From the NCBI RefSeq assembly GCF_965641715.1, contig NZ_OZ282453.1: a DNA stretch of 64,000 nt; one strand, given 5' to 3'. Below are positions 12,001 through 24,000 of this stretch, one piece after another. This stretch comes from Escherichia coli (lineage in GTDB: Bacteria > Pseudomonadota > Gammaproteobacteria > Enterobacterales > Enterobacteriaceae). Position numbers: made by a program. How positions within the stretch are numbered: position 1 is the first letter of the stretch; each line of letters begins with the position of its first letter.

Positions 12001-15000
12001 TGATGGCCCGCAATTGGCAAAAACCACGGGCGGTAACGGTTGGATAAAAATGTTAAGGCAGCGCGAGTTGAAGCTGTACCAATGGATGGCGTCTTATTTA
12101 CCCGTATTGTTGATTCGTCTTGGCATTGATGAACAAACCGCGTTTGCGCGTAAACCTGACCACCAACTGGCAGCGTTACAGGAAAAAATCGCCGTTACGC
12201 CGCAATTGACATTCAATGGCGCAAAGATCCTTGAACTGGATGGTCGGCAACCAGCCGATGAAATTCTGCAAGCGTCACTACGCGCAATTCACGCCGCGCT
12301 TTCCTGATCACCAAAATGGATAGGGGATGATTTAACGAATGGATGCACTACAAACACAAACTGTTATTAGTACAACCGCGCCGCAGCCCAACTACATACC
12401 GGGGCTGATTGCGGTGGTCGGGTGTGATGGCACCGGTAAATCCACACTGACCACCGACCTGGTGAAATCGCTGCAACAACACTGGCAAACCGAGCGCCGC
12501 TATTTGGGGCTGCTCTCGGGCGAAGACGGCGACAAAATAAAACGATTGCCGTTGGTTGGCGTCTGGCTGGAACGGCGACTGGCGGCCAAATCCTCGAAAA
12601 CCCAAAGCATGAAAACCAAATCTCCAGCGCTATGGGCGGCGGTGATTATGTACTGCTTCTCGCTGCGAAGAATGGCGAATCTGCGCAAGGTTCAGCGACT
12701 GGCGCAAAGTGGCGTTCTGGTGGTCAGCGATCGCTTCCCGCAGGCTGAAATTTCGGGCTTTTATTATGACGGACCGGGGATCGGCGTCGAACGTGCGACC
12801 GGGAAAATAAGCATGTTTCTGGCGCAGCGCGAACGGCGTTTATACCAACAAATGGCGCAATATCGCCCGGAATTAATTATTCGCCTGGGCATTGATATTG
12901 AGACTGCCATCTCCCGCAAGCCTGACCATGACTATGCCGAGCTGCAGGACAAAATCAGTGTTATGTCGACGATTGGCTATAACGGCACAAAAATTCTTGA
13001 GATTGATTCCAGAGCGCCCTACAGCGAAGTGCTGGAACAGGCACAGAAGGCGGTTTCTCTGGTTGCCATCGTTTCTGACCGCCGAAGTTTAACTTAAGGC
13101 TGGCGGGATACTTTTTACTATCAACGATAAGGTCAGGCTGAATTGGCGGGTTTTAACATCAAACATTGGTTTGCAGATGGCGCGTTTCGCACCATTATTC
13201 GCAATAGCGCCTGGTTAGGCTCCAGTAATGTCGTGAGCGCCTTGCTGGGTCTGTTGGCGCTCTCGTGTGCCGGTAAAGGGATGACGCCCGCCATGTTTGG
13301 CGTACTGGTGATTGTGCAATCGTACGCCAAGTCGATCAGCGATTTTATTAAGTTTCAGACATGGCAGCTGGTGGTTCAGTACGGAACACCAGCATTAACC
13401 AACAATAATCCGCAGCAATTTCGCAATGTCGTCTCATTTTCCTTCTCGCTGGATATCGTCAGCGGCGCGGTGGCGATTGTCGGCGGCATTGCCTTACTGC
13501 CATTCCTTTCCCATTCATTAGGTCTGGATGACCAAAGCTTTTGGCTGGCGGCGCTGTATTGCACGCTCATTCCTTCAATGGCTTCCTCCACGCCGACCGG
13601 CATTCTGCGTGCGGTAGATCGCTTTGATTTGATTGCTGTACAGCAGGCGACGAAACCTTTTCTGCGCGCAGCGGGGAGCGTCGCAGCCTGGTATTTTGAC
13701 TTTGGTTTTGCGGGTTTTGTTATTGCCTGGTACGTGTCGAATCTGGTTGGCGGCACCATGTACTGGTGGTTTGCCGCGCGCGAATTACGCCGCAGAAATA
13801 TCCATAACGCCTTCAAATTGAATCTGTTTGAGTCTGCCCGACACATTAAAGGCGCGTGGAGTTTTGTCTGGTCAACCAACATTGCCCACTCCATCTGGTC
13901 GGCGCGTAACTCGTGCAGCACAGTGTTGGTGGGGATCGTGTTAGGACCCGCTGCCGCCGGGTTATTTAAAATCGCCATGACATTCTTCGACGCCGCCGGA
14001 ACGCCAGCGGGTTTGCTGGGTAAAAGTTTTTACCCAGAGGTGATGCGTTTAGATCCGCGCACCACCAGACCGTGGTTGTTAGGTGTGAAGTCCGGTTTAC
14101 TGGCGGGCGGAATCGGTATTCTGGTGGCGCTCGCGGTGTTGATCGTCGGCAAGCCGCTCATTTCGCTGGTGTTTGGCGTTAAGTATCTCGAAGCGTATGA
14201 CCTGATTCAGGTGATGCTGGGCGCAATTGTGATTTCGATGCTGGGTTTCCCGCAGGAGTCATTGCTATTGATGGCGGGAAAACAGCGCGCTTTTCTCGTG
14301 GCGCAAACCATCGCCTCAATCGGCTACATCGTATTGCTGTTCATGTTCTGTCATCTGTTTGGCGTGCTGGGAGCAGCGTTTGCTTACTTCGGTGGGCAAT
14401 GTCTGGATGTGGTGCTTTCGCTAATTCCGACCTTAAAGGCATTTTTTCAGCGCCATTCCTTGCTTTATAACGCAGCCGGAGAGAAATCCTGATGATGAGA
14501 AAATATTTCCCGCTTGAGGCGAGCGAGCATCTATTTGTTGCGATTGAGGAAGATGATGTTGTTGATGCCCAGGTCAGTTTGCCGCCGACTATCGCACTAA
14601 GTTGTACCACCGAAATCATCCATGATAATTACGCGTTATGCCTGCAATTCTGGCTCAATGGCGTTGATCGTCAGGAATTACTTCGTTTAATTCGCAAACA
14701 AGCCAAAGGCGATGAGCTGACGACAGACGAGCGTAAACAGTTTAAATACATGCGAGCGCGCTACAAGCATCTACGTTTTGCACAACGGCTGTATTTAAAA
14801 AAGCATCAGGCCAGATTTTTATTCGGCAAAACGACCGTTTTTCTGGGACGTTTTCAGGACGGATTTCGTAACGGTAAGAAAAATATTGTGTCGTATTACG
14901 GCAACCTGTTACGAATTTATTTAAGCTCTCCGGTCTGGTCGTTGGTGAACTATTCATTACGCCATAGCCAGTTAGAAAGCGTAAGCGGTTTTATTGCCTA

Positions 15001-21000: not shown

Positions 21001-24000
21001 ATTTCAATGCCATGTTCCGGCAACGCTTTACCGCAGTTGACGAAAGTCGATACGGCGCGTGTCTCTGCACCCGGCGCGACGGCTTTACCCTGATATTCGA
21101 GGATGTCGCGATCCACTTCGTTAACCACAACCCCGGAGGCTTCATCAGAGAAGCTGACAGCCAGCGCATTTTCTGCCAGTCCGTAGCACGGCATGAAAGT
21201 TTTATCGTCAAAGTTAACCTGACGGAAACATTCAGCGAATTGATGGAGTTGTTCTGCGGAGATGGGTTCTGCACCAATACCAGCGACGCGCCAGCAGGAA
21301 AGATCCAGTTCAGCGAGATCTTTTTCATTCACGCGGCGCTGGCACAATTCATAGCCAAACGGCGGCGCAACGGAAACGGTGCCGCGATTTTTACTGATCA
21401 ATTTAAGCCATTGCAGAGGACGCATGGCAAAATCCTGAGTGCGCAAATAATCTACTGAAAGCTGCGTGGCGACCGGGGTCAGGAGAAAGCCGACCAGTCC
21501 CATATCATGGTAGAAAGGCAGCCAGGAGACGCAGCGGTCGCCAGGGCGTAATTTAATGCCGTCGTGGCTTATAGCACGTAGATTAGCCATCACTTCGCGA
21601 TGGGTGATAATGACGCCACGGGGAAAACGGGTGCTGCCGGAGGTGTACTGGAGGTAGGCGATATCGTTCGGAACTGGACGCTGGAGCGCAACATCGGCTT
21701 CCGGTAATGCCTTATACCAGGCGTGGCTTAATACATGCAATTCGGGGTTGTTATGCGTGGCGGCATTGACCAGCGGCAACCACTCATCACCAGTGATAAT
21801 GGCAGCGGGCTGGCAACTTGCCAGTAAACCCTGCAGTTTGGCGCTCCAGGAATCCCGCTGACCGACGCCCATTGGAATCGCCAACGGGACGGCGACTAAG
21901 CCGGCATACTGGCAGGAAAAAAAAGCCTCTACGAACCCGCTACTGGTTTCGGCAATCAGTGCCACGCGATCGCCTTTTTTCAGGTTCAGCGATAACAACC
22001 GCTTCGCACCAGCTTCGGCACGCGCTTTTAACGTCTGATATTCCAGTTGATCTTCAAGTTGGCAACGTCTGTCATAAAAATTCATTCCAGCGCTACTCAG
22101 AGCGGCGTAGTCCAAAGCATCAACCAGCGTTGGAAAATCGGCATAGCGCATAGGTAGGGAATGCGTAAAGATTTTATTAGACATATACACCACGAAAAAA
22201 TTGGATATCAAAAATAAAATGACAATAATGCGGTGGATTATATAGGTATAAAAGATAAATGAGATAGTATTTTCATTGGTGTGATATTGAACATTGATTA
22301 AAATAATGCTTTAAATCTTAACTCTGTTTATTGTGAATAATATTTAATTTATGAATATATTAAGATAATGCGCTGGTGGGTCGCATTAAATCCACAATAG
22401 TCATGTTGATCGGCTAACGGTGGCGCTGGTGTATCGTAATTATTCATAAATATTATTTTATTTTTCCTTATATTCATTGCGTGGATAGTTAAGGTACCGT
22501 CCGTTGCTGTTTATTTTCAGCATTAATTATTTGTTATCCACTAAGCTATGGAACGCGATCTGCTGATGATTAAAATTGAAAAAGTAATAAATAAAAATGA
22601 CTTAAAGGCATTTATCGCTTTTCCGTCATCACTTTATCCCGACGATCCAAACTGGATACCCCCTTTATTCATTGAACGCAACGAGCATTTGTCTGTGAAA
22701 AATCCGGGGACGGACCATATCATCTGGCAGGCGTGGGTGGCAAAAATAGCCGGGCAGATAGTTGGGCGTATTACCGCGCAAATCGATACCTTACACCGCG
22801 AGCGTTACGGCGAAGATACCGGTCATTTCGGCATGATTGACGCCATTGATGATCCGCAGGTTTTTGCCGCGTTGTTTGGCGCAGCGGAAGCGTGGTTGAA
22901 GTCACAAGGTGCAAGTAAGATCAGCGGGCCTTTCAGCCTGAATATCAATCAGGAAAGCGGATTACTGATTGAAGGTTTTGACACACCACCCTGTGCGATG
23001 ATGCCACACGGCAAACCGTGGTATGCCGCGCATATTGAACAACTGGGTTATCACAAAGGCATTGATTTACTGGCGTGGTGGATGCAGCGAACCGATCTCA
23101 CTTTCTCTCCGGCGCTAAAAAAACTGATGGATCAGGTGCGCAAAAAGGTGACCATTCGCTGCATCAATCGTCAGCGGTTTGCCGAAGAGATGCAGATCCT
23201 GCGTGAGATTTTCAACTCTGGCTGGCAGCACAACTGGGGATTTGTGCCGTTTACCGAACATGAATTCGCGACCATGGGCGACCAACTTAAATATCTGGTG
23301 CCGGACGATATGATCTACATCGCTGAGATTGATTCTGCACCCTGCGCGTTTATTGTCGGCTTGCCGAACATCAACGAGGCGATTGCCGATCTGAACGGAT
23401 CTCTCTTTCCCTTCGGCTGGGCAAAATTGCTGTGGCGTTTGAAAGTCAGCGGTGTGCGAACTGCGCGAGTACCGCTGATGGGCGTGCGCGACGAGTATCA
23501 GTTCAGCCGCATCGGCCCGGTGATTGCGCTGTTATTGATTGAAGCCTTACGCGATCCGTTTGCCCGCCGGAAGATCGATGCGCTGGAGATGTCATGGATC
23601 CTCGAAACCAATACAGGCATGAATAACATGCTGGAACGCATTGGGGCAGAGCCGTACAAGCGTTACCGATTGTATGAAAAGCAGATTTAATACCAGCTAA
23701 CTCTGGTTCATCTCCAGCGGCACCGCCGAGCGAATCAAATGGTGGCCTTCCAGCTCGATATCGTGGAGATTCTTTTTCACGGTCCGCACATGATCGCGTG
23801 CTGCGCGCTGGGCGACGTGCGGCAGCCGCTGCAACACCGCGTTGTAGATCCGCGCATGCTGGCGATCGATCTGCTTTTTTTGCTGTGGTCGATGGTAGAG
23901 ATTATTTACGCTGGCAAACACTGAATTAAACATCAGATCGGTCAATGATTGCAGCGTAAACACCAGCACCTGATTGTGAGAAGCCTGACAAATGGCGAGA

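Follow-up and report, generated by a model that had tools for sequence, protein, structure and literature searches.

In the laboratory strain Escherichia coli K-12, a copy of the insertion sequence (IS) element IS5 stands between two truncated genes, yghQ and yghO, and this arrangement raises the question of which genes occupy the site in other E. coli and what was lost with them. Here, the locus was analyzed in a 64,000-nucleotide stretch of E. coli DNA (NCBI RefSeq assembly GCF_965641715.1, contig NZ_OZ282453.1), which is termed the window and to which all coordinates refer. An original prediction, made from the sequence of the window, held that full-length yghQ and an intact 380-amino acid yghO enclose eight genes of an uncharacterized system, and that K-12 lost them with a segment at 14492-22211. 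The analysis makes it very probable that these genes belong to a 13-gene locus that makes, modifies and probably exports a ceramide-type sphingolipid, and that K-12 lost the center of this locus by an IS5-associated deletion after yghQ had acquired an amber codon.

The K-12 deletion and the order of events

A listing of open reading frames (ORFs), together with RefSeq annotation of near-identical loci, confirmed exactly eight intact ORFs between full-length yghQ (13143-14492, plus strand; 449 amino acids) and yghO (22548-23690, plus strand; 380 amino acids). The same gene set is annotated by RefSeq in strain TUM13936, in which the locus is 99% identical, and in strains W and ABU 83972. When K-12 MG1655 was aligned to the window by BLASTN, the two sequences were colinear to ∼14211 and resumed at ∼22590, with IS5 between, and intact orthologs of the eight genes were absent from the K-12 locus. 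Exact junction mapping placed the missing DNA at 14211-22587 (8377 bp; 8384 bp relative to W and 8387 bp relative to ABU 83972), with one 1195-bp IS5 in its place. The core of the predicted segment was correct, but its limits were too narrow, the deletion reaching past both ends.

The K-12 IS5 is complete, with both terminal inverted repeats, and no IS5 copy was found within the window. In K-12 its left flank reads TTAG and its right flank TTAA; both fit the target YTAR, and a direct duplication is absent. Given that the flanking 4-mers are not a duplication, the arrangement reflects a deletion and not a simple IS5 insertion. At the left junction (14207-14210, plus strand), TCAG is present in all of the intact strains checked (the window, TUM13936, W and ABU 83972) where K-12 has TTAG. 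At the right junction (22588-22591, plus strand), the window has TAAA, and K-12, W and ABU 83972 have TTAA. The left-site difference is a CAG to TAG change that creates an amber codon at position 356 of yghQ and at the same time yields an IS5 YTAR target. K-12 yghQ retains 355 of 449 codons and is annotated as “missing C-terminus.” K-12 yghO lacks only codons 1-13, the promoter and the whole upstream region; the “YghO” annotated in K-12 by PGAP is a chimeric ORF with a start inside IS5. The predicted K-12 order of yghQ, IS5 and truncated yghO was therefore correct as an arrangement, except that yghQ is itself truncated. The differing IS5 flanks and the truncation of both neighbors bear out the IS5-associated deletion, by which K-12 lost the eight genes. 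Either recombination between two IS5 copies of like orientation or intramolecular transposition would account for such an event.

The distribution of this junction was surveyed by megablast in 5426 complete E. coli genomes, where K-12 strains cover only 40% of a query spanning 11000-25000. The K-12-type junction was present in 356 of the genomes, and every carrier sampled was a K-12 laboratory strain. Clusters of single-nucleotide variants in yghQ have been reported in chlorhexidine-adapted K-12 strains, yghQ being treated there as an ordinary intact gene (PMC8170033). Since K-12 yghQ is a truncated remnant abutting a multi-copy IS5, variant calls at this position may merit a second check.

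To place the amber codon relative to the deletion, a 63-nucleotide probe was used in which the K-12 left flank, including the T, was joined to the native downstream sequence of yghQ. Nine non-K-12 genomes matched it at 100%, and so carry the amber allele with native yghQ sequence past the TAG. Two of the nine, LD27-1 and TUM12357, were examined and share the protein accessions of YghT, YghS and YghR with K-12. In both, a different deletion is present that runs from 14249 to 48974, from yghQ to gspL (∼34.7 kb), with a 6-bp overlap at the junction. It has taken the sphingolipid genes and yghO, and also the glc operon, glcA, sslE and most of the gsp genes. This 34.7-kb junction is confined to the same nine amber-allele genomes, and none of the 5426 genomes has the amber allele together with an intact cluster. 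Given that the nine genomes share the amber codon with K-12 and differ from it in the deletion, the amber allele predates both deletions. It appears, from these allele and junction sequences, that the yghQ amber codon arose before the IS5 event in the K-12 lineage and made the TTAG target, and that a microhomology deletion removed the locus separately in the sister amber-allele clade. The sequence of events in K-12 would then be the amber mutation, followed by the IS5-associated loss of 8377 bp, with yghT, yghS, yghR, truncated yghQ and truncated yghO left as orphans.

Two other accounts of these alleles were considered and rejected. The left-junction T is not an artefact of IS5 transposition, as the nine genomes have the T and the native downstream sequence with no IS5 at that site. 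Nor can the nine genomes derive from the K-12 arrangement, as they keep 38 bp of yghQ that are missing in K-12.

The predicted ceramide gene set and its partner genes

The assignment to sphingolipid synthesis is carried by a minus-strand operon, aasR-epi-acpR-spt, and by yghO. The product of spt (18100-19272, minus strand), a predicted serine palmitoyltransferase (SPT), scored 599 bits against the NCBIfam equivalog NF047599 (cut-off 500) and did not pass the BioF, KBL and CqsA models. Its best matches among solved structures were Sphingomonas SPTs (E 4e-111), with KBL and BioF at 1e-59. The SPT motifs SHASI, DEAHS and LLRCS are kept, as is the pyridoxal phosphate lysine, K244, in GTFSKS. Directly upstream and in the same operon lies acpR (19272-19520, minus strand), the stop codon of which overlaps the spt start by 1 nucleotide; it encodes a dedicated, specialized acyl carrier protein (ACP) of 82 residues (Pfam PP-binding, E 1e-13). 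The product of epi, a cerR-like gene (19552-20466, minus strand), is an extended short-chain dehydrogenase/reductase (SDR) that is named NAD-dependent epimerase/dehydratase by PGAP and is a putative NAD(P)-dependent 3-keto reductase; it matches Pfam Epimerase (E 6e-23) and has GATGFIG (Rossmann) and YxxSK motifs. AasR (20463-22184, minus strand), a predicted fatty acyl-AMP ligase and acyl-AcpR synthetase encoded in the operon shared with spt, scored 872 bits against NF006624 (cut-off 600). Its start is taken as the ATG at 22184, following the annotation of strain W; the right limit of the predicted segment, 22211, comes from a mechanical ORF with a TTG start.

YghO is a homolog of the bacterial ceramide synthase bCerS, also named Aca, a GNAT-related N-acyltransferase. 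It shares 41% identity with its homolog in a Caulobacteraceae spt cluster and 31-39% with spt-adjacent genes of unrelated metagenome-assembled genomes (MAGs), and YghO homologs sit beside spt in several phyla. Six of eight members of the family match Pfam Acetyltransf_1, a GNAT model (best E 8e-7). Searches of the solved structures in the PDB with the YghO sequence and with a YghO-family profile gave no matches. All of the components of a dihydroceramide cluster are thus represented: SPT, a dedicated ACP, an acyl-ACP synthetase, an SDR reductase and a GNAT-like acyltransferase. Judged by homology, aasR, epi, acpR, spt and yghO can be assigned to the Caulobacter-type, or “Rhodobacteria”-type, dihydroceramide pathway.

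Biochemical evidence is available from strain BL21(DE3), the DNA of which is 96.9% identical over the segment. There, the genes are named aca (yghO, ECD_02850), aasR (ECD_02851), epi (ECD_02852), acpR (ECD_02853) and spt (ECD_02854) (PMC9386255). BL21 AcpR bears 4′-phosphopantetheine, AasR acylates AcpR, and co-expression of AasR, AcpR and SPT leads to 3-oxosphinganine, with L-serine used by SPT (PMC9386255). The description of the system as uncharacterized does not hold, given that the BL21(DE3) cluster has been published and three of its proteins assayed (PMC9386255). In the window, the near-identical AasR would adenylate a fatty acid and load it onto AcpR, and SPT would condense acyl-AcpR with L-serine to give 3-oxosphinganine. 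Reduction by Epi and N-acylation by YghO, in either order, would then yield dihydroceramide by homology with the Caulobacter pathway.

The SPT-like enzyme could instead make a different α-oxoamine, such as a CAI-1-type signal, a sulfonolipid precursor or a deoxy-sphingoid base, and the product would then be a signaling or specialized lipid. The family is functionally diverse, with CqsA, cysteate acyltransferase, KBL and BioF among the weaker structure matches; the native E. coli product is not known, and the cluster appears silent in BL21 laboratory culture. Such an enzyme is nevertheless unlikely here. The SPT-specific equivalog was passed and the other family models were not, solved SPTs match much better than the other family members (E 1e-111 versus 1e-35 to 1e-59), the BL21 enzyme turns L-serine into 3-oxosphinganine, and a dedicated flippase together with LptF/LptG paralogs points to a bulk envelope lipid.

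The extent of the sphingolipid locus was examined by scanning one genome per species for SPT and tabulating all neighboring genes. The recurring module comprises yghT, yghS, yghR, yghQ, the gene for a 274-residue protein with a CHAD-type fold, a ytfJ paralog (ytfJ2), lptF2, lptG2, spt, acpR, epi, aasR and yghO, and covers ∼13 kb in the window (10728-23690). At least 10 genera of Enterobacterales have all 13 genes in one neighborhood, with the order changed in some cases: Escherichia, Pseudocitrobacter, Citrobacter, Hafnia, Sodalis, Serratia, Mangrovibacter, Pluralibacter, Rosenbergiella and Pantoea. Loci that hold both yghT and spt number at least 20 and come from ∼10 genera. This conserved linkage indicates that the functional unit is one of 13 genes and not 8, and yghT, yghS, yghR and the truncated yghQ and yghO of K-12 are five remnants of it.

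In the Pseudomonas variant, spt, acpR, epi, aasR, yghO and lptF2G2 are accompanied by two YghRST-like kinases, to which are added a diacylglycerol kinase (DAGK)-type lipid kinase, an MsbA-like ABC exporter, an enzyme resembling sulfatases and phosphoethanolamine transferases, and a LysR regulator. The gene content of the variants points to a phosphorylated, exported sphingolipid as their common theme.

YghT (10728-11420, minus strand; retained in K-12), YghS (11594-12307, plus strand) and YghR (12339-13097, plus strand) are paralogs with a P-loop small-molecule kinase fold and share the motifs GxDGxGKST, DRYPQ and ARKPDH; Pfam thymidylate kinase models matched them below threshold only. Single-sequence searches of solved structures with YghR and with the 274-residue protein returned no matches. 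YghQ is assigned to the MOP-family (Wzx-like) flippases by a match to Pfam Polysacc_synt and a sub-threshold NCBIfam MOP flippase match, and a Caulobacteraceae MAG has a homolog with 33% identity in its spt cluster. The 274-residue protein (14492-15316, plus strand) is predicted to be soluble and all-helical with a CHAD (conserved histidine α-helical domain) fold; no sequence-family match was obtained for it, including Pfam PF05235, against which 1 of 15 homologs scored E 0.031. The CHAD fold is a polyphosphate binder. The YtfJ-family protein (15325-15888, plus strand) matches Pfam YtfJ_HI0045 (E 2e-59) and TIGR01626 (213 bits) and has a hydrophobic, signal-like N-terminal segment, so that a periplasmic location is likely; this locus-specific copy would be a paralog if E. 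coli has a separate ytfJ gene.

LptF2 (15919-16989, plus strand) and LptG2 (16986-18065, plus strand; its start overlaps the lptF2 stop by 4 nucleotides) are divergent permeases of the LptF and LptG families of ABC transporters. LptF2 scored 318 bits against TIGR04407 (cut-off 230) and is 29% identical to the K-12 housekeeping LptF, and LptG2 scored 309 bits against TIGR04408 (cut-off 240) and is 28% identical to the housekeeping LptG. The housekeeping lptF and lptG lie at another K-12 locus, adjoining pepA, and K-12 lacks the copies described here. LptF2 and LptG2 are a second, specialized pair, as in the Caulobacter sphingolipid locus, and not the housekeeping pair for export of lipopolysaccharide (LPS). 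The PGAP/RefSeq names lptF and lptG (15919-18065) and “dTMP kinase” (10728-12307) are likely over-annotations that mask the real context.

On the basis of fold and gene linkage only, the following roles are proposed. YghR, YghS and YghT would phosphorylate the lipid or its head group, and the CHAD-fold protein would handle a phosphate-rich ligand. YghQ would flip the product across the inner membrane, LptF2G2 would act with the housekeeping LptB and the Lpt bridge to extract it toward the outer membrane, and YtfJ2 would serve as a periplasmic accessory.

The database names suggest a different product, related to LPS or polysaccharide: PGAP uses “lipopolysaccharide biosynthesis protein,” “LPS export permease LptF/LptG” and “epimerase/dehydratase,” the LptF/LptG equivalog scores exceed their cut-offs, and yghQ matches Polysacc_synt. 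This assignment is very improbable. In Pfam and NCBIfam scans, the block showed neither glycosyltransferases nor sugar-nucleotide enzymes. SPT, AcpR, AasR and YghO constitute the published ceramide set with 3-oxosphinganine as the product of the BL21 enzymes; LptF2 and LptG2 share only 28-29% identity with the housekeeping pair, and K-12 lives without them; and the Caulobacter sphingolipid cluster has the same arrangement of paralogs.

The 13 genes are arranged as two convergent operons and two singly transcribed genes, yghT and yghO. The plus-strand operon, opened by yghS, has the order yghS-yghR-yghQ-CHAD-ytfJ2-lptF2-lptG2 and meets the minus-strand operon at a shared hairpin (18063-18097), a GC-rich, perfect-looking 16-bp stem that lies between the lptG2 and spt stop codons and is likely, from its position and structure, to be a bidirectional terminator. 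It was the one element to stand out in a promoter and terminator scan that otherwise gave no more sites than shuffled sequence, and an Rfam scan of 10000-25000 identified no RNA families. The divergent region between aasR and yghO (22185-22547; 363 bp, 29% GC; deleted in K-12) presumably holds the promoters of both genes, and the sigma-70-like matches within it were weak only and not above shuffled expectation. The yghT-yghS intergenic region is 31% GC. In K-12, yghS is reported to belong to the H-NS regulon and to be raised 3.1-fold under SlyA overexpression (PMC5797941). Taken with the lack of product in BL21, this behavior of yghS suggests that the chromosomal cluster is silenced in laboratory culture.

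Some observations on neighboring and related genes were made in the course of the survey. The gene of the second phosphate transporter, pitB (9180-10679), adjoins the block also in Pseudocitrobacter, Citrobacter, Hafnia and Pluralibacter, where the gss and glc flanks are not kept; a functional tie to a phosphate-containing lipid is possible, as is hitch-hiking. Serratia sp. M24T3 has two spt-acpR loci, one in a full block; the second pair (79% and 69% identity) stands alone, with no other block genes within 10 kb. A 273-bp, low-coverage contig of Alkalicoccobacillus porphyridii (Bacillales) encodes the last 35 SPT residues at 100% identity and is probably E. coli contamination.

Losses, retention and ancestry within Escherichia

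At least 80% of the interval deleted in K-12 is present, at 95-99% identity, in 4063 of the 5426 complete E. coli genomes (75%). Losses other than the two in the amber-allele lineage are of several kinds. In the O157-type cattle strain 143, pitB is truncated (from 10415) and the region from yghT onwards is replaced by copies of IS3, IS66 and IS1203 and a pheV-type, fragmentary efa1/lifA-like (TcdA/TcdB glycosyltransferase) island; in one O157:H7 genome, neither the yghQ flank nor the yghO flank was found. Strain T2 carries an IS1-linked deletion from gss to pheV. In SW071614, the stretch between the 3′ end of pitB and the 5′ end of lptF2, both ends included, is gone, and with it yghT, yghS, yghR, yghQ, the CHAD-fold gene and the ytfJ paralog; in one genome an IS lies inside the cluster. 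The locus has been lost several times independently within E. coli. Elsewhere in the window, a second K-12-specific deletion (40776-48771; ∼8.0 kb) takes gspD-K of the second type II secretion system, so that gspC is joined to gspL; the junction has a 5-bp overlap, and no IS element is present at it.

Such losses, in K-12, the nine-genome clade, O157-type strains, T2, SW071614 and the IS-interrupted copy, would be expected if the cluster were a decaying, non-functional relic across E. coli, and its apparent silence in the laboratory agrees with that account. The state of the genes speaks strongly against it, however, and makes it highly improbable. The reading frames of all 13 genes are intact in the window, W, ABU 83972 and the cryptic clades, the ratio of nonsynonymous to synonymous substitution rates (dN/dS) is 0.03-0.19 for all 13 (0.04-0.07 for yghT), and at least 80% of the segment persists in ∼75% of genomes, a figure in which frame integrity was checked only in the window, W, ABU 83972 and the cryptic clades. 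These rates indicate that the 13 genes are under purifying selection, and the locus appears to be kept in most lineages.

The age of the locus was assessed from its position, composition and divergence. The gss-pitB...glcC-glcD context is the same in phylogroups B1 and B2, in E. whittamii and in other cryptic-clade Escherichia. Synonymous divergence (dS) from cryptic-clade genomes is 0.13-0.77 for block genes, of the same order as the 0.14-0.49 of pitB and glcD. The GC content is 0.510 for the eight-gene segment, 0.501 for the 13-gene block and 0.523 for the window, in agreement with the earlier judgment by eye that composition is close to that of the flanks. The GC content at third codon positions (GC3) is 0.54 in the block and 0.61 in the other genes of the window. 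Codon fit was scored by a leave-one-out procedure against the other genes of the window, and the codon bias of the block runs in the direction of host genes, though less strongly. A search for repeats gave short matches at chance level only, and neither direct nor inverted repeats border the segment. No integrase or adjacent tRNA was found, the only tRNA being pheV at 50423-50498. The odd composition, mobility genes or att repeats and restricted distribution of a recent island are accordingly not seen here. The shared position and divergence indicate that the locus is ancestral within Escherichia and was in place before E. coli and the cryptic clades diverged. The prediction of an ancestral locus is upheld in this sense by position, GC content, dS and prevalence, and is to be modified in another: codon usage is modestly less host-like, and, because the block is also patchy in Enterobacterales, an older horizontal origin is likely.

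The view that the eight genes are a recent strain-specific island, and that K-12 preserves the original empty site, its IS5 insertion being unrelated, can draw on the slightly less host-like codon usage and lower GC3, on the patchiness in Enterobacterales and on the travel of pitB with the block in other genera, but it is refuted for E. coli by the occurrence of the segment in all sampled phylogroups and, at the same position, in cryptic-clade Escherichia, by core-like dS and GC (0.51) with no integrase, tRNA or bounding repeats, and by K-12 yghQ and yghO that are both cut exactly at IS5 with differing flanking 4-mers; only an acquisition that predates the diversification of Escherichia could revive it.

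Implications and comparison with known systems

The assignment of the locus to a ceramide-type sphingolipid, with loss from K-12, has to be weighed against several observations that count against it. No wild-type E. coli is known to make a lipid product of this kind, and 3-oxosphinganine was undetectable in empty-vector BL21 (PMC9386255). E. coli YghO itself matches no Pfam or NCBIfam model. The roles given to the kinases, the CHAD-fold protein, the flippase and LptF2G2 come from fold and gene linkage. The end product of the deletion is compatible with either IS5 mechanism. The codon-fit score is 0.085 for the block and 0.156 for the other genes (Mann-Whitney p = 4e-4), and the block is absent from many Enterobacterales, so that “ancestral” applies only within Escherichia.

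Taking the sphingolipid assignment further, a tentative model can be put forward in which most natural E. coli and scattered Enterobacterales place a phosphorylated sphingolipid in the outer membrane. A ceramide core would be modified by head-group machinery consisting of YghRST and the CHAD-fold protein, perhaps with PitB, and exported by the MOP flippase and LptF2G2 on the Lpt bridge; the locus would be silenced by H-NS in the laboratory and switched on under some condition of a host or of the environment. Without the flippase, the remainder may be dispensable or harmful. If this model is correct, the yghQ, yghR, yghS, yghT and yghO genes of K-12 are remnants of an outer-membrane sphingolipid pathway, and flippase loss would explain the two independent deletions in the amber-allele lineage.

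For Gram-negative envelope lipids, E. coli serves as the reference organism, and it is usually described as lacking sphingolipids. That picture rests on K-12, from which the locus is gone, and on laboratory conditions, in which it is apparently silent. The locus, with its own LptF/LptG pair, persists in about three-quarters of complete E. coli genomes, among them those of commensal, uropathogenic and B-lineage strains, and studies of the envelope, antimicrobial peptides, phage receptors and host signaling in K-12 may overlook a class of lipid. The five K-12 genes are better read as pathway remnants than as independent genes. In addition, the transport of non-LPS lipids by Lpt-type machines becomes testable in a genetically tractable organism.

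Part of this is already known: sphingolipid genes in non-K-12 E. coli have been published, and the K-12 deletion shows up whenever genomes are compared, although none of the open-access papers searched states it. In the open-access papers and preprints searched, no report was found that ties the K-12 IS5 deletion to the loss of sphingolipid genes. A 13-gene module with kinase and CHAD parts, its 75% prevalence and a history of an amber codon followed by two deletions were likewise not found in the open-access literature searched.

Other IS-associated deletions that distinguish K-12 from the rest of E. coli likewise consist of a single IS with two different flanking targets and truncated genes on both sides. 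The event described here differs from them in that a point mutation, the amber TAG within TTAG, appears to have made the IS5 target. The cluster described in BL21(DE3) by Padilla-Gomez et al. in 2022 (PMC9386255) is the same locus in another strain, with five genes in identical order. That study treats the genes as a trait of “E. coli B,” never names K-12, gives no population prevalence and leaves aside yghT, yghS, yghR, yghQ, the CHAD-fold gene, the ytfJ paralog and lptF2/lptG2.

The closest functional parallel is the Caulobacter crescentus locus CC_1152-CC_1168, which comprises spt, acpR, aasR, cerR/epi and bcerS/aca together with the cpgABC head-group genes, LptC2/F2/G2 and a flippase (PMC11324152, with the Olea-Ozuna and Stankeviciute studies that it cites). 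The five-gene ceramide core, a flippase and a second LptF/LptG are thus common to both species, and the identities between E. coli and Caulobacteraceae MAG proteins are 53% for spt, 43% for aasR, 41% for yghO, 39% for acpR and 34% for epi. The flippase is less well conserved, the Caulobacteraceae MAG homolog being only 33% identical to YghQ, and in the Pseudomonas variant its place is taken by the MsbA-like ABC exporter. The E. coli locus lacks the DAGK-type ceramide kinase of Caulobacter (CC_1160-like), the CC_1159/CC_1161-type head-group genes and LptC2. By contrast, three thymidylate-kinase-fold paralogs, a CHAD-fold protein and a YtfJ paralog accompany the ceramide core in E. coli and distinguish its locus from that of Caulobacter.

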